Shown: positions 33,260 to 55,329, counted from the first letter of the stretch. The stretch is 55,329 nt of DNA from Nitrososphaerota archaeon (GCA_029786595.1 JAFLXO010000005.1:4652-59980), one strand, 5' to 3'. Translations and numbers: made by a program. The notes: generated from the letters alone by a model not told the origin.

Positions 33260-33300
33260 ATAAATATAACATAAATTATCATCACATTAGTTCAACCCTT

Positions 33301-35437: not shown

Positions 35438-35614
35438 ACGTCACACTGGTGGTCAATATTGTTTCTTCCCGCGTCCGAATAATAGCAGAAGATATATTGC
35501 AGGCTACTAGAGATGGAGTGAAGCGTGGAGATGACTTGTCAGTATCGCCACGGCCGGCACCCCCGTGTCGGTGGGCAAAGAGAGCCAGAACCCTTAAATG
35601 GAGGGCAGCTGAAA

Positions 35615-35863: not shown

Positions 35864-35866
35864 CTC

Positions 35867-37384: not shown

Positions 37385-37406
37385 ATTATATACTTTTCCG
37401 CAAATC

Positions 37407-37566
37407 TCCTTTGTTGCATAACTCTCTCGGCTACTCGCATTTGGCTATACTAGGGCCCCGCATGATGACCCCATCGCTTCAAGCAAGCGAGCATATTCTT
37501 CACCAACCTACCTGGGCAGTGAACCGTTGCGGTGCGCCTCCACCACGTTGTACGTGTAGATCTTAG
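37407..37566 (-). mobile_element. Right end and extreme 3' fragment of an IS5-family element
   Basis: Terminal repeat TCCTTTGTTGCATAA at 37407-37421; minus frame KIYTYNVVEAHRNG matches KVFVYNVVKANRNG of the 20.8-kb copy. Confidence 0.75.
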
Positions 37567-37620
37567 TCATATATATATTAATGAGCGAGCGATGGTATTC
37601 CGAACGGGCGTATAGGTCTC

Positions 37621-38796: not shown

Positions 38797-38904
38797 GACG
38801 CAAGATCAAGTTTCAATCCTGCCAGGGCTCGATCGAAATCTGGCATTACGCCCATGTGTAACAGCGGTTTCTCTCCTACGATATCAGGCAACAGCATCCA
38901 TCCT

Positions 38905-39690: not shown

Positions 39691-40023
39691 TGCCAGCGAT
39701 CAACAGATTCCAAATAGGATTGGTTGGCATCTATCACTGCCCACCAGGGCCGGGCCGGTTACGGGCGTGAGCCTGAATCCCATAAGATGGGGATAAGATT
39801 ATACAGATATAAGCTTATACATGTTCGGGTCCTGCTGACTTTTGGGAATGAGCCCATCGAAAGCCTGGGGATTAAGGAATATATATCAAGCCATGGCGCT
39901 TTTAAACTAAGATATGCCATAACTGACGACCCTCTTCGGAACGAGAAATAGCCAGTGGCAGCCCGTCATCATCTTTTTAAGCCCGTTTTGCCCAAGAAAA
40001 GGTGTATGCCTTTTGGTGTCAGA

Positions 40024-40596
40024 ATGAGGAGGAAGGGCGTTAGCCGAATCACGACTGCATTTGCGGTGGCGATAATAATCATAATCATCGCTGTAGCCGG
40101 ATTTATTATATTTAGTGCTGGTGGGCTTGGCAACATTGGAATCGGAACTGGTGGAAACGGCGGCGGAGCCAATTCAAACGTGCCAGCGCAAATAGTTATT
40201 ACTTCAACTAATCCCACACTGGAACAAAGCATTGCGCCTGCTGGAGTCGATCTTCTTTATTATAAGCCGCTTGTATTACAACCGAACACGAATTATACGT
40301 TCCCAATAACGATTACTGTAGAAAACAGCGCAGGCGAAGTATTGAACACGTCCATTGTAATTACACCAGTGAATTGTACCTTCATTTATCCAAAAGATAA
40401 TATTTTATACTACGTATCTCCGTCTTCGGGCGTTTCTCCGTTTAATGCAACTTTGGTAATTGTTACGGGAAGCACAGTAAATTTTGGGCAAACAACTGAT
40501 GGTGATATTAGCTTGAGCTTTACACTATCCACTGCTATGGTAAAGAATCCAAATATATATAATATTCTTATTGCAAATTCAAGTTACAAATCATGA
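40024..40596 (+). CDS. Archaeal type IV pilin-like protein
   Basis: Class III signal peptide-like MRRKG/VSRI followed by a hydrophobic helix and a T/N-rich beta domain. Confidence 0.75.
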   Translation: MRRKGVSRITTAFAVAIIIIIIAVAGFIIFSAGGLGNIGIGTGGNGGGANSNVPAQIVITSTNPTLEQSIAPAGVDLLYYKPLVLQPNTNYTFPITITVENSAGEVLNTSIVITPVNCTFIYPKDNILYYVSPSSGVSPFNATLVIVTGSTVNFGQTTDGDISLSFTLSTAMVKNPNIYNILIANSSYKS

Positions 40597-40617
40597 TCAT
40601 AGTAATTAAATTACTCG

Positions 40618-42687
40618 TTAAGTATTAGGGCTTGTAGCACCCATATACCCACCGTTTGTATTAAAAACCGCATTAGCATAAGATATACCTGTATTGCCGA
40701 TTGGATTGTTCACAGTATATGAATAATACCCATTACTAGCGGTTACAGTGTAGCCGGTCGCTAAATGCCCGCCGCCGCCATTATCGAAATATACAGTTAT
40801 TGTTTGCCCGCCCAGCCCTGCGCCATTATCGGATGTAGTTAGATATCCGTAAATCGTGTATGTACCAACGCCGGTGGTGAAGCCGGCACTCAATCCAGTT
40901 GGCGTGTAGTATGCCGCCGTAACGCTGGCCGTACCACCGGAACCAACTGATACAGAAGAAGGCGCACTGTATACACTCAAACCGTATTGTGAGTTACTAT
41001 AGGAAATCGAATATGTGCCCGGCGGCACCCAAGCTACGGCATCACTCCCACCACTATATACTAACTGTTTCCCGTTAGAAAGCGTAGCGGTAGAAATTGC
41101 GGTCGCCCCAGTGCCATAATCCTGCGATGAGTAGAATATTTCACCATCTTCACCAAAGTTCGCGCCGATCGAAGTTGGTGAGTATATGTTGAACTGGTAT
41201 GGATTGCCGCCCGAAACACCAGTCCACGATGAAAAATACCAATTTGTAGATGGGTACGCCGTCACCGTCACCAGCGTGCTCTCATTATACCAGCCACCGC
41301 CAGATACAGAACCAGAGCCAGAGTTCACATACGCATTCACGTAAAGCTGTGTGGTGTATGAAGCCGTGATGGTGGTGGAACCGTAGATGGTTTGCGAACC
41401 GCTCGAAGGATTCGGATTCACATACTGCACTCCGGAGCCGCCGCTGAAAGAGCTCCCGAAAGTATAGGTTATCGTGCTTCCGTAGTTGACCGTAACGCTG
41501 TAAGGCGTGGTTCCAGAACCGTAGTTCGTGGATACAGGTGCACCGCTGACCGGATTTGACTGGAACGTGACTGAATAGGAGTTAATGCCAAAGTTCGCGT
41601 ATATAGAGTTGGGCCCGTTCATGGTGACAGAATAGGTTGAACCAGTATTGCCGTTAGACCAATCGATGAAGTGCCATCCGCCTGCTGGAGATTCTGAGGC
41701 TGTTGCAGTGGAGCCAGCGTTGTACCAGCCGGAGCCGGATACGGAGCCTGAGCCGCTGGCTATGCCCACGGTAAAGTAGTACTGGAGCTGGTATGCTGCG
41801 GTTATGGATCCGCTGCCGGTTACTGTGAACGAGCCTGATTGCGAAGATGATAATCCGGTTGTGCTTTCCCATACATATTGCGCTCCTGAGCCGCCGGAGA
41901 CAGGGGATATCCATGAGAATGAGTGGGTTGTACCCTCCTGCCAGGTGAAGCTGATTGGCAATTGTGAATATGTGTACGGGTTGCCATCCACTGTTAGCAC
42001 TGTGCCGCTTGCGCTTGAACTCATTCCTGTTTGTGCGAATGTTACTGTTGCGTATATTGGGTTGAATGTGGCGGCTTCTGTTATGTTAGACCACATGTAC
42101 ACGGAGAACGTCTGATCCGAACCGCTGTAGCTGTACTGCCCCGTCCCTGTCCAGCCGCCCCACGAATAATACTGCGCCGGGGCGGCGGTCAGCGTGACCT
42201 TATCGCCGTAGGTGTAATAATATGTGCCTGGCGCTGGGGTGGTGGACCCGCCAGGGGTAGAAGTGATGGTGAGAGCGTATATATCAACGGTCGGGTTGTT
42301 TATGTCGAAGGGGACGTACCATTCGTTTCCGTAGGACGTCAAAATCGCATACCGGTACGGCGTCTGCAACGTAAAGTTGTAGCTGGAGCCCGGGTACAGC
42401 GTTATGGATTCGTTGATAAACGTGGGCGGGCTGCCGGTGTTCGGGTTCCATACCATTATCTGCGTTATCCTGGCCGTGTACTGCCCGCCGTTCGTGACCT
42501 CAAGGGTGGAGCCGCTGATGGCCATGGACAGGTACTCGGCGTCCTTGTAATGTAACAGGTTCGTAACTTGCTGCTCCTGATACAGGCTGCTGAAGATGCC
42601 CACGGCGAAGAACGAAATGGCCAGCACACACGCTACGGCGATCAACAGCACAAGCAGGCCGGCGAGCATGGAGGAGACAGCCTTCAT
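40618..42687 (-). CDS. Large pilin-like adhesin with repeated InlB-B/Flg_new-like beta modules
   Basis: MKA/VSS class III-like signal; repeated GSGSVSG.GWYN....T.TA.P...W.F..W modules; S/G/T/Y-rich. Confidence 0.85.
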   Translation of the reverse strand: MKAVSSMLAGLLVLLIAVACVLAISFFAVGIFSSLYQEQQVTNLLHYKDAEYLSMAISGSTLEVTNGGQYTARITQIMVWNPNTGSPPTFINESITLYPGSSYNFTLQTPYRYAILTSYGNEWYVPFDINNPTVDIYALTITSTPGGSTTPAPGTYYYTYGDKVTLTAAPAQYYSWGGWTGTGQYSYSGSDQTFSVYMWSNITEAATFNPIYATVTFAQTGMSSSASGTVLTVDGNPYTYSQLPISFTWQEGTTHSFSWISPVSGGSGAQYVWESTTGLSSSQSGSFTVTGSGSITAAYQLQYYFTVGIASGSGSVSGSGWYNAGSTATASESPAGGWHFIDWSNGNTGSTYSVTMNGPNSIYANFGINSYSVTFQSNPVSGAPVSTNYGSGTTPYSVTVNYGSTITYTFGSSFSGGSGVQYVNPNPSSGSQTIYGSTTITASYTTQLYVNAYVNSGSGSVSGGGWYNESTLVTVTAYPSTNWYFSSWTGVSGGNPYQFNIYSPTSIGANFGEDGEIFYSSQDYGTGATAISTATLSNGKQLVYSGGSDAVAWVPPGTYSISYSNSQYGLSVYSAPSSVSVGSGGTASVTAAYYTPTGLSAGFTTGVGTYTIYGYLTTSDNGAGLGGQTITVYFDNGGGGHLATGYTVTASNGYYSYTVNNPIGNTGISYANAVFNTNGGYMGATSPNT

Positions 42688-42716
42688 AACACAGCATGCT
42701 GGGATGGCTTAAAAGG
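42685..42716 (-). promoter_or_regulatory. Shared element promoter, copy 1 (adhesin)
   Basis: Minus strand CCTTTTAAGC-CATCCCA-GCATG-CTGTGTT-ATG. Confidence 0.75.
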
Positions 42717-42735
42717 CGCGGATGGTGATCGGAAA

Positions 42736-43018
42736 GATGTTTTACATAACCGCTCAACGCCGCTCCTCAGCAGGCAAAGGGTTGGGCTGTGCCCACACCG
42801 CCGGCCATTATTTTTTTACAAACCATGCACAGGGTGGACAGGACCGGGCGGAGCCCTCGTCAAGAAGGAATACATGGACTATCATCTAAAGCAACACTAG
42901 GGCCAGCCTGCGTTTTCCTACCGGATACCTACTTCACATATGGGTTTGAACTTCATGCCCAATATCCTTAAGTGCAATTATTAAAATAACGCCATGTTAA
43001 TTTTATTAAGCGAGCGTC
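42736..43018 (+). repeat. Internally deleted copy of the replicase locus
   Basis: 42736-42847 matches about 48299-48410; 42848-43018 matches 51162-51333 including GALVKKEYM..HLKQH*. Confidence 0.9.
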
Positions 43019-43387
43019 GTAGAATAAAGCCCACAGCCCTTTTTTGCCAACATCATTTAATAAATTTTAGAGGCTTGCCAAGATAAAATTGTTACTTTTA
43101 ATAAGCTGCATTGGTCATTTCAAATGCTTATAATGCTTATTTTTAGCGTTAAAACATCGAACTTTTGAATAATTAAACAAAACACGCTTTATTTCAAATA
43201 ACGTTATTTGAATTCGAGTTCACATAAGTTGATTGACGAACTGCAACTACGCAGATGATGGACATTAAAAACATCCTTTTATAAAAGGATCCTTAACAGG
43301 CAAAGCACGCCCACCGTTAACCTCCGTTTGTTTAAAACCGATATCGCTAATAACGTTTTTAAGCACCCTTAATTTAATTAGCTAGCT

Positions 43388-43951
43388 ATGAGTTATGAAC
43401 CGTACGTGCTTTATTACGGGAGCAATTTTTTTAACAGGGCGAAAAAGGTTTATTCAATAGGCATGCTGGACAAGCCGTTTGGAAAGATCCTTAAAAAATA
43501 CGGAGAAAACTCAACGTTTTTGAATAGAGAGCAGGCTTCTCAGCTGCTCGATTCGTTTTCAAGACAAAGCTCGATAACTGTTTCTAACGCGCAGATCATG
43601 AAAAATCTGTTGGAGGTTCTTTTCCTTCCTACTTCTCTATTGTACAGTTATTTTAAGAAGCTTTCTTTTGCGGAAGCACACGAATTAGATGATCTTATTG
43701 TAATGGAGTTCATGGGGTCCCAGACAAAGCCTTTCAAGCTTACTCCGCTTTTAATTTACATGTGGTTCTTAATCCCAAAATCCGAAGAGGGATACACGCA
43801 TTCTATCAATTTGATGAAGAGAATAAAGGACGATGTAGGGGTCCCCCCAATCGATAAGGAGGAATGGGACGATCTAAAACCATTGATCGAAAAATTCTCC
43901 AGAGCGCTGCCTGTTCGCGGGTCAGCGGAAAACCTGTGGGAAAAGCTTTAA
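43388..43951 (+). CDS. Hypothetical cytoplasmic protein
   Basis: 187-aa ORF with TTTTTAAG about 25 bp upstream; no recognised motif. Confidence 0.75.
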   Translation: MSYEPYVLYYGSNFFNRAKKVYSIGMLDKPFGKILKKYGENSTFLNREQASQLLDSFSRQSSITVSNAQIMKNLLEVLFLPTSLLYSYFKKLSFAEAHELDDLIVMEFMGSQTKPFKLTPLLIYMWFLIPKSEEGYTHSINLMKRIKDDVGVPPIDKEEWDDLKPLIEKFSRALPVRGSAENLWEKL

Positions 43952-44579
43952 GATCGATTCCTTGTTTTAAATCGTTAAACGTATAAGGCCGCTTATCGTA
44001 CGGCCTGTTTAATCTGAAAGCATAGCAGGATTTTGTCCTCCAGCCTTGAGCTGACCATGGATCTTAAATTACCTTGGATTACCCTTCTTTTTCGTTTTTT
44101 AAAACGCCCGATCAAAGGCGCATTAAGGGTACAGTCAGCGTACTTGGCGGCGTAGCCTACCAATGCAAGCATTTTGACGTCCTCCCCTTGTAAGCCTTGG
44201 CGGCCATGTACCTTCCGTAAAGCCATATCATTAAAAAAAGCAGGAAGGGCTCTAGGAACGGCATAAAAAACAGTATTATATCTAAAATTGTACCCGCTAT
44301 GCCAGGGGATATGGCCTGCAGCTAATGGAATTTAATTTCTTTATCTTTCTGCCCCTCATTTTTGAACGATGTTATGCCCGTAAGCCGGATTAGGATGTAT
44401 ACGAAATACACATTATGTTGCCTTTCCATACATGTTAATTTTATTTTATTTATTAATAATGAACATCACTGCGGCGCAGGATAACTAGCTAAAAGATCAG
44501 AACGGTATCTAAAAAATTACCTGTTTCATTAAGCTTTTTGAAAGCGTCTGCGTATAAGACCGTTTGAAATTTCTTAAAT

Positions 44580-45320
44580 TCAAACGGTAACTTTCTGCTG
44601 CAGATTGGAGGTCTGCCCGTCGAGATAAATCGCATAGTAGCTAACATATACGCTCTGGCCAGAACTAAGTGACGTGACGTTTGACAGTGTCCCAGTGTAG
44701 CTCTGCCCAGGTTTAAGGTCTGTCAAATCTATCTGATAGGTTTGTCCGCCAGAGATCAAATGCGCCTGCGCGTACATTATTTCATCAGTGCCATTGTTAT
44801 AAAAGGTAACAGCCCAGGTTGCCAAAGAGCTGCCGGATGTCAAGCTTATTTTATCGCTTTTAACAAGAAATGAATCATTAACGGGACCCAGCTCAGTCAG
44901 GGTTATAGATTTATTGAAGCTTTGATAGGCACCGTTTGTAAAGTATATTTTTATATTGGACGTATACTGTTGACCGTAGTAAACAGTTATAGAAGGTCCA
45001 GTTGTATACGCTGCTATCATACCAGCGCTGACCGGGCCAACATATATCATTGTTTGAAGAAGGGCTGTGCCGTTATAGAGTTCCGAAGTAATGTTTTCAA
45101 TGCTAATTGTACCTGTATTTTTTACAGTTATTGTCTGTGCAGCATTAGACGTAGTAGCCGCTAAAGTATCGTTTAAAATTTCTGCCGAATATGAAACCGC
45201 TGGTTGGCCGTTTGAGCCTTTATTATTCAAGCTTCCTGATCTGTATGTATTTTCAACGAATGCTGCCGCTATTAAAACCAGCACAACCACTATTATAATA
45301 GTTAATGTCTTAACTTTCAT
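44580..45320 (-). CDS. Membrane-anchored surface protein with two pilin/Ig-like domains
   Basis: N-terminal TM helix; duplicated TVKNTGT / TFYNNGT modules; many sequons. Confidence 0.8.
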   Translation of the reverse strand: MKVKTLTIIIVVVLVLIAAAFVENTYRSGSLNNKGSNGQPAVSYSAEILNDTLAATTSNAAQTITVKNTGTISIENITSELYNGTALLQTMIYVGPVSAGMIAAYTTGPSITVYYGQQYTSNIKIYFTNGAYQSFNKSITLTELGPVNDSFLVKSDKISLTSGSSLATWAVTFYNNGTDEIMYAQAHLISGGQTYQIDLTDLKPGQSYTGTLSNVTSLSSGQSVYVSYYAIYLDGQTSNLQQKVTV

Positions 45321-45517
45321 ACGACCAATTTTATTTTGGGATATTTAAAAATTTTTTGCCCCTTTGGGCCTTGGAAAACGGTTGCAGATTATCAGCCCAG
45401 CGCGGGCCTGGGTTAGAACGGCGCAGATCAGCCCCATCCAATATACGCATATCCGGGGCACAGCGTTCAAAGGACACGGTCTATCGATCGATCAAGCAAA
45501 CAAATGATGTACGGAAA

Positions 45518-45637
45518 TTTACCGCTAAATTGAAGGTGTAAAAATCAGAGGAGGGGGTTATGTAAAACATTATCAGGATGTTTTACATGACCCGCTGAAC
45601 GCCGCTCCTCAGCAGGCAAAGGGTTAGGCGGTGCCCA
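45518..45637 (+). repeat. 120-bp direct repeat (left copy) containing a 16-7-16 palindrome
   Basis: Four mismatches versus 48240-48359 by manual alignment; GGGTTATGTAAAACAT-TATCAGG-ATGTTTTACATGACCC at 45555-45593. Confidence 0.95.
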
Positions 45638-46243
45638 GAGGATGCTCCAAAAAACGCTTAGGTAGGTAAAAACGTTTGCAAATCGTTGAGCTGCGCCAAA
45701 TATCAAGAGTTTCAATGCTATCAATGGTTTTCCATTTTCCATTGCTCTAACTTTTTTGCCCTATTTAACCCCCTACTCCTATTTCCCTTTGCCTCGGGGA
45801 GCAAGATGTAATTTTAATGAAAGGATGAGGTAATTATACGGAGCTTGAATGGGGATGGAAAGTCAGAAGAAGGGAGTATGGAAAAGCGTTGATATCCTTG
45901 ATACCTTGATGTTTGGGCTGCGCCCGCCTTCTGGCACAGTACCATATACCGTGTATTCTTCTTATTATTGATCGTCCTATTGATATTATGCGCCGAGTAT
46001 GCCCTATATTTTTCAGGGCGGCGGTGCGCGAGCTTGGGACATATGCCCTGTAGCTATCACGCCGCTGGTGATAGAAGACCTTTACCGTCAGACCTGAAAT
46101 ATGTCTGAGGCCTTCAATAGTGAAGGTGTGTACGGGCCTTAGGTAATGGCTGCTCCAGAACATGCGTTAAATTTTTTTACAAACCTCAAACCAACTCGCC
46201 AGTTAATGAAGCATTTATATAAGAATGGATATATATAGGAATT

Positions 46244-46963
46244 ATGTGCTTAGGTAACGGTCAAGAAGCACTTCATCAGAATGTATCTGACGGGGAATTT
46301 TTTAATAAAATTGATGTAACAAAGGGGGAACTTGAAAGGAAGTTGGAAAAGTACAAGGCAGAGGAGGTTTATGCTTACATAGTACAATCTGTTGAATATG
46401 ACGGGTCAAAATTTTTACAGGCTGCCACAGGGCCGAACTTTGAAGGAGGGATAATAACTCTGTGTACATGTAAGCATAGGATGCGAGCCAGCAGTAGAAA
46501 GGTGAAAGAAGGATGGAAGTCAACCTGGATAGCGGGCTTTACGGGCCAACGCTTATTCAGGGATGGGCGGAATTATCTGTTCTATCTGATGCGCGTGGGG
46601 GAAGCGTTTCCGTCACAGAAAGCCCTTTGGGACAGCCTGGATACACATACACGGGAAGTGAAGAACGCTCTACATAACCCACTGGGCGACCTGTATCAAC
46701 CCAAGCCGTCCCCTGAATTTAAGAGTGAATATGAATGGGGCAGTTACTATGAACCCTGCAAGGACCATGATCACCGTAAGGATGGTATATGGAAAGGCGA
46801 TATAGATTATAAAGGTTTACACCCTTCCCTATTGCTCGGGGAAAAGGATAACAGCTACCTGTGGTTTGATAAGAGTAGGGCCCCAAGCTACAAAGGCGAC
46901 GGAAAGCAGTTCCGGCAGAAGAAATTCAATAGCTTGGAGGCATTCCTCAGGGAGCTCAGATAA
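46244..46963 (+). CDS. Nmad2-like protein (nucleotide modification associated domain 2)
   Basis: YAYIV...GPNFEGG.ITLCTCKH.MR...WIAGF...LFYLMRV...N..GD.Y...H..D pattern; TTTATATA upstream. Confidence 0.75.
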   Translation: MCLGNGQEALHQNVSDGEFFNKIDVTKGELERKLEKYKAEEVYAYIVQSVEYDGSKFLQAATGPNFEGGIITLCTCKHRMRASSRKVKEGWKSTWIAGFTGQRLFRDGRNYLFYLMRVGEAFPSQKALWDSLDTHTREVKNALHNPLGDLYQPKPSPEFKSEYEWGSYYEPCKDHDHRKDGIWKGDIDYKGLHPSLLLGEKDNSYLWFDKSRAPSYKGDGKQFRQKKFNSLEAFLRELR

Positions 46964-46977
46964 TCTGTGTCACGGAC

Positions 46978-47643
46978 ATGTCATGCATACTGATCAATGT
47001 CGGGTCCGGAGGGTCTAATCCGAACGGCAGGGGGAGAATATTTGATGACGGAACCTATGAATACCTGCCACTTCCGGAGCAGGAAAGGACCAGTGAGAAA
47101 ATTCCCACTTACAGGGACATCGGGTTCGAAAAGGTAAAATTCCCTGATATTGCAGTTCACCTTGACCCTGAATTCGAGACCTATACATATGGTCATGTCA
47201 TAAGGGGGTTCGGGGACGTAAGGCTCTTCGTGGGTCTCAAAGCCGGCGGCATGCTCGTCTTTTACTCGACCCTTCAGAATGGCCACCATTGGGCACCATA
47301 CATAATAGGGTACTTCTTCGTTGACCGGGCCATAGATTGCAGGAATTTTCAGGCCTCGGATATCTTCGCTCTCAGATCCGAGGGCTTTCAGAATAACGCC
47401 CATCTGAAGAGGATTGACCCTCAGGTTGATTTTCTGGTCAAAGGCGATGATAACTCCAGATTGCTGAAGAAGGCCTTTCGGATGACAGAAACAACGGAGC
47501 CGCTCGCCCTGCGAAAATCATTGAGAAACCTTCTATTCACGCCTAGCGGGCGGGCAATTGGCGACAGAAAACCATGGTACAGGTGGACGCTGATCTGTAA
47601 AAACCCTTCAGAACTCCTACAGGTCATTGCAGAAGACAGTTAA
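46978..47643 (+). CDS. Nmad3-like protein (nucleotide modification associated domain 3)
   Basis: INVG, GRIF.DGTYEYLPLPE, PTY.D, VHLDPEF...TYG, LVFYSTL, IIGYF.V and NNAH.KR motifs. Confidence 0.82.
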   Translation: MSCILINVGSGGSNPNGRGRIFDDGTYEYLPLPEQERTSEKIPTYRDIGFEKVKFPDIAVHLDPEFETYTYGHVIRGFGDVRLFVGLKAGGMLVFYSTLQNGHHWAPYIIGYFFVDRAIDCRNFQASDIFALRSEGFQNNAHLKRIDPQVDFLVKGDDNSRLLKKAFRMTETTEPLALRKSLRNLLFTPSGRAIGDRKPWYRWTLICKNPSELLQVIAEDS

Positions 47644-48239
47644 TATTAGCTTTCCGATTTCATTAACGCATCATTGATGTTTACATCCATGATCGAACAT
47701 AAAGGTTCTAGGTACTTCTGGACATCCAAGGGCGAAGATTGAACATTACCAGTACTCCGAACTAGAATGACCATCTAATCATGCCATAGAAATCGATTCT
47801 TTATTATATAGGGAATGCAGCCATATTGAACCTCATCCACATAAATACAATAATAATAAATCTGGAATATTTGAAAGACAGAAAGCCCTATTTCTTAAGT
47901 TTATAAACTGAGTTGGTTACGAATTAGACTTTGCTTTTGAGAATACCCAGAGGGCACCGTGGGCAGTGCTGCCGACGTAGCTGCTAATTTTTATTTTCTG
48001 CGTTTGGGGGAGCTATAATAAGCTTCATATATATATTGAGCGAGGAACTCAAGCTACTTGGAGTCAGGAAATTTCCTATGACTTCAAAAAGCATATGTAA
48101 TAAAATAGACACATATAAATCATTACTTTACCTTTTTGCAGTTGAATCAAAATTTGGGTCTTTGTTATCTGTGATGATCGCCATGTTCGATGCATAGGAA
48201 GGCAATATCGGAGGAGAGTAATATGGTTTTATGGTGAGG

Positions 48240-48410
48240 TTTACCGCTAAATTGAAGGTGTAAAAATCAGAGGATAGGGTTATGTAAAACATTATCAGGA
48301 TGTTTTACATGACTCGCTCAACGCCGCTCCTCAGCAGGCAAAGGGTTAGGCGGTGCCCACACCGCCAGACATTATTTTTTTGAAAACCATGGACAGGGCG
48401 GACAAGACGG
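48240..48410 (+). repeat. 120-bp direct repeat (right copy, 48240-48359) plus an extension shared with 42736-42847
   Basis: Manual alignment with the 45518 and 42736 copies; palindrome at 48277-48315. Confidence 0.95.
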
Positions 48411-48494
48411 CGCCCAGTATTAATGCTATCAATGTCCTTCCAAATATTTTTCTAAAAACCCCTGACATGGTTGGTTTTCTGGGTAGGGATCAAG

Positions 48495-48701
48495 CGTGTC
48501 AACCCTGTCAACCCTGTCATGGGGTTGGTATACTGTTACCCCCTAACCTTTACTCACCCTATATAAGCTCCCTTTTTTTCTCTTGGTTTGTGTTTAAAAA
48601 CCGCTGTTTTTACATGTGGAATAAGGGGTTTAAATAGGGCAGTGGAAATTTAAGGGGCTACAATATGGCACCCCCCTGACAGCCCTGACAGGGGTGACAC
48701 G
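48495..48701. other. Putative replication origin: inverted triplets of 9-bp-spaced TGTCA iterons flanking an AT-rich core
   Basis: CGTGTCAACCCTGTCAACCCTGTCATGGGG (48495-48524) is an imperfect inverted repeat of CCCCCTGACAGCCCTGACAGGGGTGACACG (48672-48701); immediately upstream of the replicase. Confidence 0.7.
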
Positions 48702-48733
48702 GTCATCCGAACCCCAAGGGCGACCCTGTCATG

Positions 48734-48766
48734 CCTTTTAAGCAAATTTTTGCATGCGTGCGCATG
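48734..48766 (+). promoter_or_regulatory. Shared element promoter, copy 2 (replicase)
   Basis: CCTTTTAAGC-AAATTTTT-GCATG-CGTGCGC-ATG; implies a true start at 48764. Confidence 0.75.
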
Positions 48767-51214
48767 TCGGCCAAGATCGATTTTGACATGGGCCTCAACG
48801 TCATCCCGCTCGAACAGGGGAAAAAGACCCCCGCCGTGGATTGGAAGAATTTTCAAACGCGCCATCTCTCTCAGGAGGAGTTTAATGAGTGGTTCGGGCA
48901 GGACCCGAACCGTAACCATGCGGTGATAGGCGGCGTCACATCCCACAACCTCGTGGTGCTCGATTTTGAGGCGTGGAATGATTTTGTGGCCTTCTTCCCG
49001 GAGTGGGAGAGGCTGGCGAAGACCACCCGCGTCGTGAAGACGCCCCATGGCGGCGCCCATGTATATTATTATACACAGGAGGAGGTCCAGCGCAGGATCA
49101 AGGTGTTTGGCGACAAACATCAGGTTGACGTGTGCGGGTGGGGCGGCTATGTATGCGGGATCGGCACGGTCATCGACCATGCGCTGTGCGACAAAAAGAA
49201 GTGCCACATAGATTCCGGCAAGAGCACGTACGAAGCCGTCGGGACCATGGACATTTCGGTAGTCGGAAAGGGGCTCCTCGCATCTTTCCTTGATCGAGGC
49301 CGGAGGCTGGGCTGGCAGGTTGAGGTGCTGAAGGACACCAGGCCCGAGAGGGACACCTTTGATCACCTGCTCACCGTGGATGGCCGGCTGAACGGCCTCT
49401 TCAACGGCGACATTGAAGGATATGCGTCCCGCTCTGAGGCTGAATTTGCGCTCGTCATAAGGCTGATCAGCTACGGCTTCAGCGATGAGCAGATCAACCG
49501 AATAATGAAAGATTCAAGGATAGGCAAGTGGAACGAGTCCGAACAGTATGCCGAATACACGCTGCGGAAGGCGCACGAATGGATCGTGCGCGATCGCTCC
49601 GTGACTGCGGACGAATCGCCGTCCCTCCTAGGCCTCGGCAACCCCTCGGACGCGGCCGACCACGTCCTCGAGCGCTTTCATATCATCACCACGGACGACG
49701 GCCTGTACGTATACGACGAAGGGCTGGGGATGTACAGGCAGGGGATGGAGAAGGCGATCCAGGCGTGGGCCGAGCAGCAGGCCCGTGTTTCAGGCGGCAA
49801 TATATCACTTCGTTACATTGCTGAAATGTTTGGCCACATACAGCGCAGGACCTATGAGCGCGATATAGCGGACAACACGGATGTGTTCCACCTGAAAAAC
49901 GGCATACTGAACATGAAGACCGGTGAATTTATCGACCACACGCCCGATAAGGCGTATTTCTCCGCAATCCAGCTTCCGGTGAAGTACGACCCGAAGGCGA
50001 AGTGCCCGCTGATATTGAAGTTCATTTCTGAAATCGTCTACCCCGAAGACATCGCCGTCATTCAGGAGTTCACAGGCTACATGTTCTACCGTGGATATCC
50101 GGTGGCAGCTGCGCTGCTGCTCGTGGGCGGCGGCAGCAACGGCAAGTCCACACTGATCAGCCTGATCAAGGCCCTTCTGGGGCCATCGAACATCGCCACG
50201 TGCAGCCTTCAGGAGCTGGAGTACAACCACTTCGCCAAGGCCGACCTCGTGGGCAAGCTTGCTAACCTCTTTGCTGACCTGTCCGACGTGGCGCTGAAGT
50301 CCACGGGGGTGTTCAAGATGCTCACCGGCGGCGACCCGATCACCGCTGAGCGAAAGTACGGCCAGCGGTCCCCGTTCGTGAACTATGCAAAGCTCGTTTT
50401 CAGCGCGAACAAGGTTCCGATGGCATACGACGACAGCGATGCGTTCTTCCGGCGTTTCATCATCGTCAAGTTCCCGATGACGTTCAACAAAAGGACCGCC
50501 GACGCCCGGCTGCTTGAGAAGCTCACGACCGAGGAGGAGCTGTCCGGCCTCCTGAACTGGGGGCTTGAAGGCCTGCGGCGCCTCATGGACAACGGGTTCG
50601 TGTTCTCGAATTCCAAGAGCGTAGAGGAGATAAAGGACGAATACATCAGGATGTCAAACCCTGTGGAGGCGTTTTTCATGGACATGGTGGAGGAGGACCC
50701 GGAGAAGCGCATCGCCAAGGCTGACCTCTATCAGGCGTATGTAAGCTACTGCAAGGCGAGGAAGCTGGCGCCCGTAACTATGCCCACCTTCTTCCTGAAC
50801 GTGAAGAAGAACGGCCGCAACTACAGCGAGACGAGGTTAACATCCGAAGAGAACGGAAGGAAGGTGCGGTACAGCGCCTTTCTGGGGATCGCGCTGAAGT
50901 CCAGCGGTTCAGGTGAGCGGCCTTTAGATGCTACTCCCGTAGTACAACCGGCAAAGGATACGGAACCCGAAGCGGCTAAACCGGAGGCTAGGTCAGAGGC
51001 TAGGTCAGAGGCCAAGCCAGAGGCCAAGTTGGAGGCCAAGCCGGCAGACGAGAGGGCCGCGGAGGCGCCCGATACAGCGCCAGCGAAAACTGATAGCGCC
51101 CCGGGCTTTGATGTGGTCAACGACGTTGCCGCAGGCGTGCAGATATACCGGTGCAGGGAGTGCGGGGCCCTTGTCAAGAAGGAATACATGTCCGACCACC
51201 TGAAGCAGCACTAG
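48764..51214 (+). CDS. Plasmid/virus replicase: AEP primase-polymerase, helical domain, D5/P4-family SF3 helicase and C-terminal C2H2 finger
   Basis: VVLDFE, KTPHGGAHVYY, GGYV (prim-pol); SRSEAEFAL; LKNGILN; GSNGKST Walker A; KLVFSANK, AFFRRF; CRECG...HLKQH. Confidence 0.93.
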   Translation: MSAKIDFDMGLNVIPLEQGKKTPAVDWKNFQTRHLSQEEFNEWFGQDPNRNHAVIGGVTSHNLVVLDFEAWNDFVAFFPEWERLAKTTRVVKTPHGGAHVYYYTQEEVQRRIKVFGDKHQVDVCGWGGYVCGIGTVIDHALCDKKKCHIDSGKSTYEAVGTMDISVVGKGLLASFLDRGRRLGWQVEVLKDTRPERDTFDHLLTVDGRLNGLFNGDIEGYASRSEAEFALVIRLISYGFSDEQINRIMKDSRIGKWNESEQYAEYTLRKAHEWIVRDRSVTADESPSLLGLGNPSDAADHVLERFHIITTDDGLYVYDEGLGMYRQGMEKAIQAWAEQQARVSGGNISLRYIAEMFGHIQRRTYERDIADNTDVFHLKNGILNMKTGEFIDHTPDKAYFSAIQLPVKYDPKAKCPLILKFISEIVYPEDIAVIQEFTGYMFYRGYPVAAALLLVGGGSNGKSTLISLIKALLGPSNIATCSLQELEYNHFAKADLVGKLANLFADLSDVALKSTGVFKMLTGGDPITAERKYGQRSPFVNYAKLVFSANKVPMAYDDSDAFFRRFIIVKFPMTFNKRTADARLLEKLTTEEELSGLLNWGLEGLRRLMDNGFVFSNSKSVEEIKDEYIRMSNPVEAFFMDMVEEDPEKRIAKADLYQAYVSYCKARKLAPVTMPTFFLNVKKNGRNYSETRLTSEENGRKVRYSAFLGIALKSSGSGERPLDATPVVQPAKDTEPEAAKPEARSEARSEAKPEAKLEAKPADERAAEAPDTAPAKTDSAPGFDVVNDVAAGVQIYRCRECGALVKKEYMSDHLKQH
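50981..51040 (+). repeat. Five imperfect 12-bp tandem repeats encoding a (P/S/L)EA(R/K) linker
   Basis: ccggaggctagg tcagaggctagg tcagaggccaag ccagaggccaag ttggaggccaag. Confidence 0.85.
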
Positions 51215-51395
51215 GGACGGCCTGGATTTTCCCACTGGATATATACTTCACATAAGGGTTTGAACTCCATGCCCAATATCCTTATGTGCAATTATTGGCA
51301 TAATGTCATGTTAACTTGATTGAGCGAAGCGTCCAATTTGTCTTGAAATGGATTTCAGGTAAAAATATATAAATTTAATTATGTATTAGGCATCA

Positions 51396-52763
51396 ATGAA
51401 TCTGAAAATAGTAGCCGCTGTATTGATAGTTCTAACAGTAATAGGCTTCTCTGCATTCGCGTATGACCAGTTCTATGTCATACCTTCTCAACAGACGCAG
51501 TTGAACAACGCTGAGGCCAGTATATCTGCCATGGCACAGAGCCTGAGTTCCATGACCGCTGAATTCCAGTCTATAAATTCAAGCCTTTTGAACCTCAGCA
51601 ATGGCCTTTCTGGCGAGCAGTCCGTTATAACCCTACTCAATTCAAGCATAACTTCAGAGAATTCTCAGCTGATAAGCCTGGAGCAGAATCTGATGGAAAC
51701 ACCAAGGATAGGTATAGTCAACCCAGTTTCATTTGAGCAGGCGCCAATCCTGGCAGCGATGAGCGTCCAGGCTTCTGTTAAAATAGATGGATACACGTTC
51801 TGGCTTGGCACTATAGGAAATCACCAGGTAGTAGAGGTAAGGAGCGGAGAGAAGGAATTTGCTTCAGAGCTGGCTACGGTCCTCATGGATACGCATTTCA
51901 ACATTGTCGCAAACATAATGTCCGGAATAGCAGGCTCAAGGAATCCAAATCTCAAAACTGGCGACGTGCTGATAGGCGCGTTCGTGGTAAACCCTGACGC
52001 CATTAAATACTCCTATGACGGAACGCAGATACCCTATACCACCGAAATGGTTACAACGCCAAACTCACTGATAAACGGCACAATAATAACTGGCTACGGA
52101 CAGACCGGCGCTACCCCAAGCGATGCCTCCACATACGGTTATGGCCCGGGAGATAATAATTCGTCATTTCCCTATATCGCAGACTTTGTGGCATCTGCAG
52201 GCCTAGTGCAGATCGCAGAAGGGGCCTCTGGAATACTGGGCTCCACCAGCAATTCATACATAACCGGTAATCCCAATGCAACCGGCACGTCGCCTGCCAA
52301 TGAAATGATCGGCGTTATAAGTTCGTCATCTCACTGGACCAATCCGGTGTCCATCAACGGTGTGCAGAATGCGCTTTACCAGACCGATGCTGGGGAAAAT
52401 GAGGGATTTGGGTTCGCATATGCCAATACGCAACTGGGCATTCCATGGGTCGTGGTCAGGGGCATATCCAACTCTCACTTTGTGCTTAACGTCTTCAAAG
52501 GCACGCTGGCTGCGGACAGGGCTGCGAATGTGACAGTTTACATCATAGATCACTTTAATATGAACGGCATGCTGTATCAGCCTGCAACATTTTCGATGCT
52601 ATCGGGCAATTCCAACGCAGCGATGCACGGGTACATAGTCGCTGATTCAGCAACCTATAATATGACCAATATAACAGTAACTCAGGTGCAGTACACCGCT
52701 CAGAACGGGTCGATCATAACCATAACGAACCCCAATATGTTAGAATATACAGGTCCCAACTGA
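51396..52763 (+). CDS. Membrane-anchored extracellular MTA/SAH nucleosidase-like (PNP_UDP_1) protein on a coiled-coil stalk
   Basis: N-terminal TM, heptad S/L/N stalk, RIGIV...EQ, SGIAGS.NP.L..GDV.I, ENEG.GFA, IPWVVVRGISN. Confidence 0.85.
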   Translation: MNLKIVAAVLIVLTVIGFSAFAYDQFYVIPSQQTQLNNAEASISAMAQSLSSMTAEFQSINSSLLNLSNGLSGEQSVITLLNSSITSENSQLISLEQNLMETPRIGIVNPVSFEQAPILAAMSVQASVKIDGYTFWLGTIGNHQVVEVRSGEKEFASELATVLMDTHFNIVANIMSGIAGSRNPNLKTGDVLIGAFVVNPDAIKYSYDGTQIPYTTEMVTTPNSLINGTIITGYGQTGATPSDASTYGYGPGDNNSSFPYIADFVASAGLVQIAEGASGILGSTSNSYITGNPNATGTSPANEMIGVISSSSHWTNPVSINGVQNALYQTDAGENEGFGFAYANTQLGIPWVVVRGISNSHFVLNVFKGTLAADRAANVTVYIIDHFNMNGMLYQPATFSMLSGNSNAAMHGYIVADSATYNMTNITVTQVQYTAQNGSIITITNPNMLEYTGPN

Positions 52764-52779
52764 GAAGGCATACCGGCCC

Positions 52780-52803
52780 CTTCTTTCTTTTTTTATTTTT
52801 TTT
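52780..52803 (+). terminator. Oligo-T archaeal terminator
   Basis: Long T-rich tract directly after the stop of 51396-52763. Confidence 0.6.
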
Positions 52804-52970
52804 ATATATATGTATATAACCTCTTACCGTTTTTACATCAGGCTCCAATGCCTTTTGTTGCGTAATCCCCTCAGCCACTCAGCTGTATCAAGGGCTCTGT
52901 ATAATCCCCCAACAGCCGTGCAAACATCTTCCTGATCCTCCTATCTGAGCAGGGTTCCATTGCGGTGTGC

Positions 52971-53002
52971 CCTTTTAAACCTCCTTCGCATGTGCCATCA
53001 TG
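52971..53002 (+). promoter_or_regulatory. Shared element promoter, copy 3 (SSB-like gene)
   Basis: CCTTTTAAAC-CTCCTTC-GCATG-TGCCATC-ATG. Confidence 0.75.
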
Positions 53003-53326
53003 GTCAACATAGAAGACGTATACGGCCAGTCCGAATACCTGAAGGCGCAGGACCTGCCGCCAAAGCCTGTAAAGTATGTGATTGAGGACGTTTATGTGCG
53101 AACCTTCTATCAGCAGGGAGTTTCGACCACAAAGGTGGTCCTGAAACTGAGGGGGGAGAAGAGGAGTTTTATCGTCAATAGGACCAACGCAGGCATCCTT
53201 TCGGGCATGTTCGGCAGGGAAACCGACGGCTGGAAGGGGAAGGAGATAACGGTTGCGAAGCAGCTCATCAGGGCCTCGGACGGCGCAGAGGTGTTCTCGG
53301 TGGTGGTGCAGCGTGCGGCGCAGTAA
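53000..53326 (+). CDS. Phage-type putative ssDNA-binding (OB-fold-like) protein
   Basis: S.YLKA.DL, K.VL...G.K...VN.TNA..L..MFG.ETDGWKGK.I pattern common in phage replication modules; function inferred. Confidence 0.7.
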   Translation: MVNIEDVYGQSEYLKAQDLPPKPVKYVIEDVYVRTFYQQGVSTTKVVLKLRGEKRSFIVNRTNAGILSGMFGRETDGWKGKEITVAKQLIRASDGAEVFSVVVQRAAQ

Positions 53327-53465
53327 AGCGGCGCTGAAAAAACTGTTCCACAGGAGGAAAAGGAGGCCGGCCGCATTGATTTTTCCAAGCGTGGGATAAA
53401 ACCATGAGGCTCGGCGGCTGGCGGCGGGTATTATACATGATAAGGTGTTTACCGATTAAAGATAT

Positions 53466-53540
53466 ATCGTACTATTATAGTACTTGATAGTACGATTGCC
53501 CATGTCCATAGTACTACCTAGTACTATATCGAACTATATC
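53466..53540. repeat. Helically phased (TA)GTAC(TA) array with a 10-bp inverted repeat
   Basis: GTAC at 53469, 53480, 53490, 53511, 53521 and GAAC at 53531; ATCGTACTAT/ATAGTACGAT inverted pair. Confidence 0.7.
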
Positions 53541-53676
53541 CATAAAAATCGACACCGCTCAGGTGGTTGCGCGGCGATAAAAAAGCTGATTAGCAATTAT
53601 GGTTGAATAAATTCGATAGCCTACGGCCACAAGCAGTGTGATGGGAGAGTGCCTCTCTGGCCCCGCGCTTGCCTTG

Positions 53677-53708
53677 CCTTTTAAACGGTGCTGGCATGCC
53701 TTCTCATG
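53677..53708 (+). promoter_or_regulatory. Shared element promoter, copy 4 (T2SS-F gene)
   Basis: CCTTTTAAAC-GGTGCTG-GCATG-CCTTCTC-ATG. Confidence 0.75.
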
Positions 53709-55329
53709 AAGCTTCCCTTTTACGGTTGGCGGCTGTACTTTTTATCGGTGGTTCCCTTATTCGCCATAGTCTTTATCGGGCTGTCGCTCATGCGATTTGG
53801 GCGCACGGGGTACGTGGGGCTTGCCTCAGCTACAATGATCGGCACCGGGATCGGCCTGCTGATCGGCGGGTTCGTATACTATCTTGATGAAATGAAGCGG
53901 GGAAGCATCGCCCTGCCACCTCGCCCGAAAATCAAACGCGTCAGGCCGACCAGGCGCAACAAACACCTCGACCGTCTGGCCGGCCGGCTTGCAAGGGGGT
54001 CGTCAGGCGAAATAATCAAAGCCGGGGTGGGCTATACGCCCAACGCATTCTATTACAGGTACATCACCTACGGCGCCTGGTCCTTCATGGCCGCAATCCC
54101 TCTGTCCTTTGCCCTGGCATTCCTCCTGAAGACCCCCCTTCCGCTGGCCCTGCTGGCGGTCCCCCTCTTCGTCGTGTTCATGGCGCCGGGCATTACGCTA
54201 AAGTCCACCGCCGGCGACCGGAGGAGGGCGATAGACGACGAGCTCCCCTTTTTCGCGCTGTACATGTCAACCATGGCCGACGCCGGGGTGTCCCTGTACG
54301 ATGCCCTTAGGCGGCTGATAGGGCGCGGCGTCTTCAAGTATATAGAACGTGACGCTATCTACCTCCGGCAGTCCGTCGAGTTCCTCGGGCAGGATCAGCT
54401 TTCAGCGATAGACATGCTTGCGAAGGAGCACCCGTCCAAGTCGATGAGGGACCTGCTCTACGGCTATTCCTCGGAGCTCAGGTCGGGCGGGGACATCGCT
54501 GGGTACTTCACCGGCAGGGCCGAGTCCCTTCTCAGGTGGCTCGAATTCCGCTTCTCGAAGTACGGCGACTCAGTTTCCGACCTGGGCGAGATGATGACCG
54601 CCATGTTCTTCATAATGCCCACCCTGGTGATCGCTTCGGCGTTCATCTCCCCGGCCGCTTCGATAACCCTCGTGTGGGTGATGACGGTGCTTGTGATCCC
54701 GGTCATGGGGGTGGTGATCATATTCCTGATCCGTTCGGCCCAGCCGAAGACGGGCGATGCATACGTGGGGAACGTCCGCAACGGCGTCATAGCAGGGGCC
54801 GTTTCCGGGTCCATAATGGCCTTCCTGCATGTCCCGCTCTGGGCTCCAGTGGCGGCCGGGCTGGTGGCGGGCTCCCTGGCCTTCAGCCTGCCGGTGTACA
54901 TGCAGAAGAGGGCCGCCGACGCCGAAGAAAGGAGCCTTGAGGGGTTCGTGCGTGATGTAACCGAATATCGCAAGTCGGGGTATGGCATGGCCCGGACGAT
55001 AGGGAAGCTGGCCGCCGAGGGCAGGTATACGAAGGAGTTCACTGCGGTGCTGAAGGGCGTGGCCGTCTCCCTCTCGCTCGGCTCCCGCCTTTCGGAGGTC
55101 GTTGTGAAAGGGGCCTCCTGGGCCACCCGCGAGCTGTTCTTCCTCCTTGGCGAGGTGGACGATTCCGGCGGGGGATCGCCAAGGGAGCTTGAACTGGTAC
55201 ATGAGTTCATGGAACAGTTCACGAACGCCAAGGCGATGGTCAAGTCCCGCATGAAGATCTACGAGCTGCTGACCATGGCAACCCCTCCGAGGCTCGGCAT
55301 TCTGATCTTTGTCAGATCCACCTTCATGA
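53706..55329 (+). CDS. Type IV pilus/Tad assembly platform protein (T2SS-F, TadB/TadC/ArlJ-like), 3' truncated by the window; absent from the ORF track
   Basis: Manual translation MKLPFYGWRL..., frame still open at the window end; IDDELPFFALYMSTMADAGVSLYDAL, HPSKSMRDLLYGYSSELRSGGD and a second T2SS-F-like repeat FVRDVTEYRKSG. Confidence 0.88.
   Translation, partial: MKLPFYGWRLYFLSVVPLFAIVFIGLSLMRFGRTGYVGLASATMIGTGIGLLIGGFVYYLDEMKRGSIALPPRPKIKRVRPTRRNKHLDRLAGRLARGSSGEIIKAGVGYTPNAFYYRYITYGAWSFMAAIPLSFALAFLLKTPLPLALLAVPLFVVFMAPGITLKSTAGDRRRAIDDELPFFALYMSTMADAGVSLYDALRRLIGRGVFKYIERDAIYLRQSVEFLGQDQLSAIDMLAKEHPSKSMRDLLYGYSSELRSGGDIAGYFTGRAESLLRWLEFRFSKYGDSVSDLGEMMTAMFFIMPTLVIASAFISPAASITLVWVMTVLVIPVMGVVIIFLIRSAQPKTGDAYVGNVRNGVIAGAVSGSIMAFLHVPLWAPVAAGLVAGSLAFSLPVYMQKRAADAEERSLEGFVRDVTEYRKSGYGMARTIGKLAAEGRYTKEFTAVLKGVAVSLSLGSRLSEVVVKGASWATRELFFLLGEVDDSGGGSPRELELVHEFMEQFTNAKAMVKSRMKIYELLTMATPPRLGILIFVRSTFM

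Follow-up and report, generated by a model that had tools for sequence, protein, structure and literature searches.

Does a plasmid-type replicase that shares one stretch of an archaeal chromosome with genes of a type IV pilus form a single mobile element with them, or are the two only neighbours? The question is raised by a 55,329-nt stretch of DNA from a Nitrososphaerota archaeon (GCA_029786595.1, JAFLXO010000005.1:4652-59980), hereafter the window, in which positions 39.7-55.3 kb hold a replicase, a putative origin, a pilus platform gene and an adhesin. In our numbering of genomes (G), contigs (C, of G000 unless another genome is named) and fetched loci (L), the window is G000:C66:4652-59980; its right end is exactly the end of a chromosomal contig of about 60 kb. 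G000 is a metagenome-assembled genome (MAG) from acid-mine habitats, of 1.61 Mb in 110 contigs, with a GC content of 47.5%, a completeness of 82.7% and a contamination of 4.2%. Judging by the source names of homologues, the host is a non-ammonia-oxidising member of the Thaumarchaeota/Nitrososphaeria of the Conexivisphaerales type, and the metagenome runs that contain the stretch, from seven studies, are of mine-tailings, mine-drainage and sediment origin. On balance, and with modest confidence, we take 39.7-55.3 kb to cover the left and the centre of a mosaic region formed by an integrated mobile element, of the kind of the thaumarchaeal integrative-conjugative or cryptic integrated elements. 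As such, it is a fragmentary and incompletely assembled example of integrated conjugative-type elements already described for the phylum, and not a new kind of element.

Replicase, putative origin and pilus genes

The replicase (827 aa, with a low-complexity tail and a C-terminal CxxC) matches the Pfam families Prim-Pol (8e-13), D5_N (8e-12) and DUF5906 (6e-21) and scores 194.7 bits against the NCBIfam primase_Cterm model of the P4 family (TIGR01613; cut-off 108.7). Its N-terminus, a primase-polymerase (primpol) domain, matches the solved domain of pRN1 ORF904 (1rni) with an E value of 2.6e-16, and its LDFE, HGG.H and a later D align opposite their ORF904 counterparts, which we take to be the catalytic positions. 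A PHROGs search over the region returned replicase matches and weak matches to families of unknown function, and nothing else. Just upstream, three copies of TGTCA with a 9-nt period (48497-48519; 2.6 copies of the Tandem Repeats Finder (TRF) unit TGTCAACCC) face an inverted array of three TGACA copies with the same period (48677-48699) across a 157-nt spacer with TATA-like boxes, and single copies of the motif lie at 48463 and 48727. C20 and G002:C171 have the two arrays conserved, and C40, a contig that stops short of the right array, has the left one. In G011 both arms are altered together (TAGCA/TGCTA), as would be expected if a single protein bound the two arrays. The site may serve as an origin, as an autoregulatory operator or in both roles. 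An earlier note on this DNA, made from the sequence alone, had proposed a prim-pol/superfamily 3 (SF3) helicase and an iteron origin; the first was borne out by the Pfam, NCBIfam and 1rni matches and the arrays of the second are present, the inverted one being an addition.

Downstream of the replicase, the platform protein matches Pfam T2SSF (3e-07) and scores 334.8 bits against the NCBIfam UpsF equivalog as a cut-short copy, the full-length sister on C27 reaching 391 bits (cut-off 400). The BasF score is 232.8 bits (cut-off 1300), and that of FlaJ is also far below the UpsF score. The platform gene that had been called TadB/C-like is present and, by its NCBIfam score, UpsF-like. The MAG has three full or near-full UpsF-type genes and one contig-end fragment (C66, C27, C35 and C89). 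Upstream of the window copy lie the primpol gene and the genes of a 455-aa and a 108-aa protein, and no UpsE or other secretion ATPase and no UpsA/UpsB pilin lies beside it in the window, pilins and ATPase being on other contigs.

The adhesin and a 213-aa pilin-like gene sit divergently upstream of primpol. The class III signal of the adhesin is convincing (MKA/VSSMLAGLLVLLIAV), and its start (MKA/VSSMLAGLLVLL) is closely like that of a small pilin-like protein on C51 (RRA/ISEMLAVIIML). Its N-terminus matches BasB with an E value of 2.7e-9, at 37.1 bits against a family cut-off of 230. UpsA-like pilins on C51, C1 and C34 carry KA/ISPIIATIILI. For the 213-aa protein, which has no family match (NCBIfam included), a class III signal is plausible (RRKG/VSRITTAFAV), the true start lying probably near 40021 (MRRKG/VSRITTAFAVAIIIIII). 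Of the class III signal peptide proteins proposed before, these two stand with that difference in strength, and the 246-aa and 455-aa proteins have N-terminal membrane anchors instead.

Between replicase and platform lies the gene of the 108-aa protein, for which an oligonucleotide-binding (OB) fold is predicted. It has no match in Pfam or NCBIfam, its AlphaFold2 model is of middling confidence (pLDDT 67), and the best VIA-align matches of the model are OB folds that bind single-stranded DNA (RPA, Rim1, LEF-3, PriB, SSB and PrgE) at Z of 5.0-5.9, below the guide value of 8. Foldseek against the PDB gave a best E value of 0.047, all other matches being weaker or equal. Against BFVD, the model matched unnamed or uncharacterised Caudovirales proteins (1e-6) and DUF669 proteins (2e-3), and a protein language-model atlas likewise points to unnamed phage proteins. 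The family is narrow, with 12 clusters at 90% identity in a collection of 5.8 billion proteins; its profile matches 6 of 36 genomes of the order, and a metagenome scan with it found no relative. Within the sub-clade of the window (UpsF identity of at least 66%), the gene is invariably directly upstream of the UpsF-type gene. A phage-type gene like that of a single-stranded DNA-binding protein (SSB) had been proposed here; the gene exists, and on fold matches below the guide value the label is no more than plausible. The alternation of GC-rich and GC-poor genes, seen at first by eye, was confirmed by per-gene values: 57.4% for primpol, 60.5% for UpsF, 55.4% for the 108-aa gene and 52.2% for the adhesin (about 54% in its 5' part), or 52-60% for this core against 36-49% for the interleaved genes and the genome average given above. 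Table 1 collects the features.

Table 1. Features of the 39.7-55.3 kb region, in window coordinates.
Feature	Position	Strand	Basis or remark
Left edge of repeated module, with a 75-aa open reading frame (ORF) of doubtful reality	39734..39951	.	blastn, ORF list
213-aa pilin-like protein	39955..40596	+	ORF list, signal motif, paralogues
689-aa adhesin: class III signal, pilin-like N-domain (BasB/BasC-like), three Flg_new_2 (InlB B-repeat)	40618..42687	-	Pfam, NCBIfam
Remnant A	42736..43013	.	repeat comparison
Cargo segment 1: 187-aa ORF (+), 77-aa ORF (-), 246-aa membrane-anchored CARDB-like protein (-)	43388..45320	.	GC about 41%
Repeat B: 120-nt copy (97%) of 48240-48359, with 11-bp-stem palindrome and first ~45 nt of shared core	45420..45691	.	
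Cargo segment 2: Nmad2-like gene and Nmad3 gene	46244..47643	+	Pfam
Repeat C: palindrome and core, directly upstream of origin region	48240..48413	.	
Putative origin/operator, two inverted arrays	48463..48731	.	TRF and reading of the sequence
Replicase: pRN1-type primpol, D5_N, SF3 helicase (DUF5906), winged helix	48731..51214	+	Pfam, NCBIfam, structure match
Source of the copy in remnant A: primpol 3' end and 113 nt downstream	51162..51327	.	83% identical
455-aa membrane-anchored PNP_UDP_1/MTA-nucleosidase-like protein	51396..52763	+	Pfam, NCBIfam; variable cargo
108-aa predicted OB-fold protein (SSB-like, weak evidence)	53000..53326	+	structure model, paralogues
UpsF-like type IV pilus platform, residues 1-547 of ~625	53688..55328	+	Pfam, NCBIfam; cut by contig end

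Copies in the genome and linkage in relatives

The MAG has further copies of the core modules, 67-90% identical, on five or more other contigs, and these sister copies sit in at least three different flanks. Primpol has copies on C20 (88%) and C89 (85.5%), the adhesin on C15 (84.7%) and C20 (83.2%), the 213-aa protein on C20 (67%) and C15 (69%), the 108-aa gene on C89 (90%) and C27 (87%), and UpsF on C27 (84.3%) and C35 (82.1%). On C20, the pilin-like gene, adhesin, origin and primpol are contiguous, and C89 shows the order primpol, unrelated 455-aa ORF, 108-aa gene, UpsF. In C27 and C35, UpsF follows the 108-aa gene (of which C35 has just the 3' end) and precedes defence cargo, and duplicates of the UpsF 3' end bracket inserts of about 3.4 kb in C27 and 2.6 kb in C35. 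On C15 are the pilin-like gene and the adhesin, a HamB-like helicase with its 1019-aa ORF, and the 108-aa gene. In G011, a primpol fragment stands just before the 108-aa gene, after 20 kb of restriction-modification (RM) type cargo. That the element accumulates cargo, as the earlier note had it, is supported by these differences between copies, namely a 5.57-kb insert relative to C20, a contig that skips the 455-aa gene and the defence genes of the sister copies.

The defence islands themselves vary. After UpsF, C27 has DISARM-like DrmA/DrmB/DrmC with a methylase, ParB_N with PRTase-III-A, and an Mrr-type enzyme (L009 1629-11946), and C35 has PDC-S01, a type IIG RM gene and a GmrSD/NsnA-like gene (L010 2150-10273); on C15, the HamB-like helicase and its 1019-aa partner lie at L011 1430-6783.

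We also considered that the window is a product of assembly or binning, a chimeric contig or strain variants in one bin, with a gene order found in no single cell. The completeness, contamination and fragmentation of the MAG would allow this, as would many contig pairs that are 85-99% identical and contigs that break at repeats (G001:C65 ends at remnant A, and C20:1-106 equals window 33427-33532 at 100% identity). Such an origin is nonetheless very improbable, as contigs of runs from four different studies cover 30 of 30 bins of 37500-55329 and bridge gene junctions, the same order is found in C89, G011 and G024, and the sister-species MAG G001 is collinear with window 33340-42678. Furthermore, a full second genome in the bin is made less likely by the genes purA, purB and PRT of C40, each of which the MAG has only once. 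The gene adjacency is real, for each of the junctions primpol/455-aa, 455-aa/108-aa and 108-aa/UpsF is spanned by Logan contigs from independent runs. In contigs of four runs over 37500-55329, which drop rare forms, we found no joint removing 42857-48426 and no circular back-joint.

Among relatives, the UpsF clade was taken as genes with at least 48% identity to the window UpsF and counted in 61 genomes, G000 included. Its distribution is patchy (8 of 61); it was not found in two same-genus MAGs (73-74% complete), and in the relative G055 the best T2SSF match has 23% identity (E 1e-11). A primpol match occurs in five of the eight UpsF-clade genomes, always on the same contig, and in 7 of the other 53, kin not being independent in these counts. 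Primpol and an UpsF-type gene share a contig in four other genera (G011, G024, G003 and G005). C89, G011:C147 and G024:C46 each have primpol or a fragment of it immediately before the UpsF-type gene, and the distance is 6 kb in G003:C25 and 20.6 kb in G005:C8. In the sub-clade of the window, all four loci with at least 1.3 kb of upstream sequence (C66, C89, G011 and G024) have primpol or a fragment upstream. In G005, a stretch of about 25 kb holds an adhesin pair divergent from primpol, as in the window, then, within the primpol-UpsF interval, a TraG-P-loop ATPase, a T2SSE ATPase and a Pilin_N gene, followed by UpsF, an adjoining second adhesin and DUF932; a search for att-like direct repeats in the 74 kb around this island gave two repeat pairs, neither of them flanking it. 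The complete genome G018 has its two UpsF-clade genes in islands with Pilin_N, DUF932, TFIIB (island 1) or TraG/TrwB-like genes, and methylase/defence genes, and homologues of the 108-aa gene are 11 kb and 64 kb from them.

A number of observations, given in this paragraph and the next, weigh against one element of linked replicon and pilus. The UpsF alignment was used to scan metagenomes, which gave 36 clade loci at about 50% identity. The arrangement usual there (18 of 36) has UpsF directly after one or two pilin genes, and primpol is found in two, which are also two of the five loci with at least 6 kb of upstream sequence; one of the two is the G003 contig itself. The replicase-SSB-T2SS-F synteny that the earlier note had suggested searching for recurs in the same order in C89, G011 and G024. 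Three loci of the same pilus clade with at least 9 kb upstream (L115, L116 and L138) have no primpol, and neither G018, with its two UpsF copies, nor G006 has a match to the window primpol. L115 is collinear with G003 over the pilus locus, RHH, PIN and TnpB genes replacing the primpol module, and L138 has housekeeping-type genes from about 1.6 kb upstream of the pilus locus (an isocitrate/isopropylmalate dehydrogenase and an MFS transporter, ~1.6-5 kb). Because of these loci without primpol, the pilus module is not tied to this replicon and, as far as gene order can tell, the locus can exist without it, though the link is tight in the window sub-clade. The earlier note had named T2SS-F and pilin genes that are core chromosomal orthologues in relatives lacking the replicase as a finding that would tell against it; UpsF-clade genes are there in G018 and G006, in a clade that is patchy. 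These data would suit a pilus that belongs to the host, that is, an Ups-like or DNA-exchange locus in a hypervariable island serving as insertion hot spot for unrelated primpol plasmids, defence cassettes and transposons, with replicase and pilus as neighbours. The same explanation would account for UpsF-adjacent primpols that belong to different lineages (35-70% identity to that of the window) and for neighbours that are defence islands. In L115, the interval from the UpsF-type gene to the adhesin contains DprA (DNA_processg_A) and two dNMP-kinase-like genes (12427-15465), a hint that this pilus clade is linked to the uptake or processing of DNA, and one that may speak for a cellular uptake role. 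We hold host ownership to be possible but rather doubtful, given that in the four sub-clade loci no pilin gene lies where primpol stands directly upstream, that primpol, the 108-aa gene, UpsF and adhesin diverge alike between copies (79-90%; 67-69% for the 213-aa protein), that the adhesin pair is divergent beside primpol in both C20 and G005, that UpsF-type genes are multi-copy (3-4 in the MAG, 2 in G018) beside a single ATPase, and that the clade is patchy.

The remaining difficulties of the mobile-element reading concern borders and functions. In 39.7-55.3 kb there is no tyrosine integrase, att repeat, tRNA, secretion ATPase, prepilin peptidase or UpsA-type pilin; no VirB4/VirD4 was found among 20 ORFs scanned from 33.9-55.3 kb, the contig ending at 55329, and PF19044 gave one 15-bit match in the whole MAG. 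The right border is lost, as the contig ends inside the platform gene, and the left one is placed near 39734 from the start of similarity to sister copies in blastn (39734 for C20 and G002:C138, 39943 for C15), just past a carbonic-anhydrase-like (CA-like) gene; this flank of M20 peptidase and CA-like gene is itself duplicated (C40 and G002:C171). The direct repeats of the window are internal gene-end or intergenic copies, not att. Only one secretion ATPase of the matching pilus clade is present in the MAG, on C87 (L014, 1073-4048, minus strand), a FlaI/BasE-like ORF of 991 aa with a LAGLIDADG intein inside its T2SSE domain. None of the 83 spacers of the three CRISPR arrays of the MAG matches the region or the sister contigs C20, C89, C27, C35 and C40; in the comparison with the window, all MAG contigs and the fetched loci, the spacer matches fall on C42, C28, C86, C8, C45, C49 and C23. 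Lastly, some of the copies may come from co-binned strains and not one genome, because of the contamination level and the 222 directed ORF pairs of at least 70% identity over 55 MAG contigs.

Related functions are found elsewhere: integrases on C75, C41, C92 and C49, a HerA/TrwB-like ORF of 781 aa on C44, one sub-threshold Peptidase_A24 match (22 bits) on C99, and a ParB_N gene 4 kb from the sister UpsF on C27, with no TFIIB-ParB in the window. The PilB/VirB11 and VirB4/HerA ATPases, integrase and att sites that the earlier note had suggested looking for are absent from the window, which ends inside the platform gene. That the element builds a Tad-like pilus was not supported, since the window has no secretion ATPase, UpsA-type pilin, prepilin peptidase, VirB4/VirD4, integrase or att, while the broader proposal of a mobile element draws support from the multi-copy modules, the patchy UpsF clade and the primpol-UpsF contigs in G011, G024, G003 and G005, its borders, integrase and att sites not having been found.

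In the integrated mobile element that we favour, the replicase would bind the iterons and replicate an excised or ancestral plasmid form. Platform and adhesin would act together with partners encoded elsewhere, in the host or on the same element past the contig end, namely a secretion ATPase, UpsA-like pilins and a prepilin peptidase, and the resulting adhesive Ups-like pilus would bring cells together for DNA exchange. Recombination between co-resident related copies would gain or lose cargo, leaving duplicates such as the 113-nt repeat and the 3' ends of primpol and UpsF. A bolder version, which we think quite unlikely, is that adhesin pair, origin, primpol, OB-fold gene and UpsF make up a self-replicating element without an ATPase that reprograms the host pilus for its own transfer. 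Each copy would bring a platform and a tip adhesin and borrow the single Ups-type ATPase, the pilins and the peptidase of the cell for element-specific mating pili, and the gene-end duplications (primpol 3' end, UpsF 3' end and 113-nt core) would be scars of cassette capture that loads defence and surface cargo.

Cargo, remnants and flanks

Remnant A consists of half a palindrome, a 99-nt copy of a stretch upstream of primpol and, fused to it, a 166-nt copy of the primpol 3' end and the sequence downstream; it has neither origin nor primpol body, and a remnant 92% identical to it lies at C20:17196-17647. Repeats A and C bracket the 5.57 kb (42857-48426) that are missing from the C20 copy, the flanks being 113-nt direct repeats, and this insert opens with a copy of the primpol 3' end. 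Judged by these repeats, the pattern fits tandem or recombined element copies followed by the loss of one origin-primpol body.

Within the insert, the 187-aa and 77-aa ORFs of cargo segment 1 match no family, and the segment has no PADLOC match and no paralogue in the MAG. In segment 2, Nmad3 is matched at 2e-18 and Nmad2 weakly (1.9e-4; 21.5 bits, below the cut-off of 26.1); the pair, named after 'nucleotide modification associated' Pfam families, has no further partner gene in its cassette. The 455-aa PNP-like gene, on the evidence of contig structure, is dispensable cargo, because in one contig of run X13, which belongs to a different study, the primpol stop is followed, after 16 other letters, by sequence that begins just before the 108-aa gene (51211 joined to 52969). 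The gene is replaced by the unrelated 455-aa ORF in C89 and inverted in G011. PADLOC gave no match for any of the seven window proteins tested, and no window cargo protein matches a known defence family.

The palindrome, with its 11-bp stem (ATGTAAAACAT..ATGTTTTACAT) and about 40 nt of conserved flank, recurs at no fewer than five places: window 45552-45596 and 48277-48319, G000:C66:2454-2528, C20:21337-21411 and G001:C65 (L098 7053-7126). One copy is about 1.4 kb from the CRISPR array. In the window, a 45-nt core lies 3' of the palindrome, and this core is also found at 42751, C20:3868, C20:17341 and C40:211. Together they could be a recombination site or a regulator-binding site. Rfam (E up to 1, 38.5-55.3 kb) returned four chance-level miRNA/sRNA matches, all far below the gathering score, and therefore core and palindrome fit no known RNA family. 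Two small ORFs with a common N-terminus (42789-42971 and 48353-48637) were rejected as genes, their identity to C20 being about 78-87% in DNA and about 50% in protein.

To the left of the region lie ordinary chromosomal genes, namely the CRISPR array, type I cas genes, CofH-like, GTP cyclohydrolase III and RibD genes and, in addition, NrdD, ECF transporters, sirohaem and sulfite-reductase genes and the M20 peptidase. The array (window 1-736; 36-nt repeat, 72-73-nt period) extends leftward beyond the window and is followed, at 1619-10429, by a Cas4-Cas1 fusion, a GSU0053-family gene and a Cas3 helicase-HD gene. The CA-like gene (38905-39690) has a GC content of just 36%, and with the M20 peptidase it forms the duplicated block, of 2.1 kb. 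This block directly adjoins primpol in G002:C171, and in C40 the genes PRT, purB and purA stand between the block and the sequence upstream of primpol. The C40 version of the neighbourhood wholly lacks window 19380-37574. Because of this absence (19.4-37.5 kb) and of the break points of C20 and of the G001 contigs, the latter at 33340, the plastic region may reach well beyond the flagged stretch.

Comparison with known systems

The closest described elements are integrative-conjugative elements (ICEs) of thaumarchaea. According to passages of Krupovic 2019 (PMC6563490), such ICEs carry TadC, FlaI, PilT, a prepilin peptidase and pilins together with replicases that join an archaeo-eukaryotic primase (AEP) to a superfamily 3 helicase (S3H), and the replicases of NCAV2-E1 and NitIsl-E3 are of this primpol-S3H type; a passage of Abby 2018 (PMC5797428) describes ICE-1 with an AEP-S3H fusion and an integrase. 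The claim of an undescribed element therefore fell, primpol-S3H with TadC, FlaI and pilins in thaumarchaeal ICEs being already in print (Krupovic 2019; Abby 2018). Like NCAV2-E1/ICE-1 of Ca. Nitrosocaldus cavascurensis and NitIsl-E3, as these passages present them, the window is chromosomal, with an AEP(primpol)-S3H replicase, a TadC-type platform, pilins and mosaic unrelated or defence cargo. By the features that mark these ICEs, the window has the TadC-type platform with pilin-type genes and the AEP-S3H replication module, and the TFIIB and TraG-like genes of the related G018 island add to the likeness. Up to the contig end it differs in lacking a VirB4/VirD4 pair, a FlaI/PilT ATPase, a prepilin peptidase, TFIIB-ParB, an integrase and att sites, and its platform is of the UpsF type. 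Its host order is outside the four orders named in the part of the Krupovic 2019 survey that lists them. Our search of the literature on Conexivisphaerales, Conexivisphaera and Gagatemarchaeaceae with pili or mobile elements found no paper on such an element.

Other systems share single modules with the window. The replicase has a primpol domain homologous to that of pRN1 plasmids (ORF904), with catalytic-motif positions aligned, and then an SF3 helicase, and if remnant A and repeat C mark a tandem, a plasmid-like circle of about 8.3 kb could be drawn (48315-51327 with 43013-48314). Plasmids of the pRN1 type are small extrachromosomal circles with CopG and PlrA genes, whereas the window is chromosomal, its helicase is of the D5/P4 type (TIGR01613) and no circular form was seen in contigs. 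Among 15 ORFs scanned in 39.7-55.3 kb there was no RHH/CopG match, and no CopG/PlrA-type genes were found. In Sulfolobales, Ups pili are encoded by upsX-E-F-A-B and mediate UV-induced aggregation and, together with the Ced system, DNA exchange. The full-length sister of the platform protein, on C27, falls just below the UpsF equivalog cut-off (391 against 400), and UpsA-like pilins are present in the MAG on C51. In contrast to the ups genes, the window platform has no adjacent UpsE or pilins, is multi-copy and is preceded by a replicase and an OB-fold gene. The window also has a large Flg_new_2 adhesin with a pilin N-domain. Scores against the bindosome assembly system (Bas) are below family level (BasF 232.8 against 1300, BasB 37.1 against 230). 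The pNOB8-type conjugative plasmids of Sulfolobus are archaeal self-transmissible elements, some of them integrating, and in the passages of PMC6563490 that treat them they rely on VirB4/TrbE and VirD4/TraG homologues, neither of which was found in the window. In addition, horizontal transfer, duplication and modularity are described for archaeal type IV pilus loci in a passage of Makarova 2016 (PMC4858521).

As it stands, the window adds a fragmentary example and no new principle, and its co-varying inverted iteron arrays offer a directly testable origin/replicase specificity pair. If the linkage is true, integrated elements of primpol plus pilus would extend from ammonia-oxidising thaumarchaea to deep-branching acidophilic lineages of the Conexivisphaerales type, and a plasmid replicon would be paired with an Ups-type pilus platform and not with a VirB-type apparatus. 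Such a pairing, if true, would bear on DNA exchange in archaea without known conjugation ATPases.

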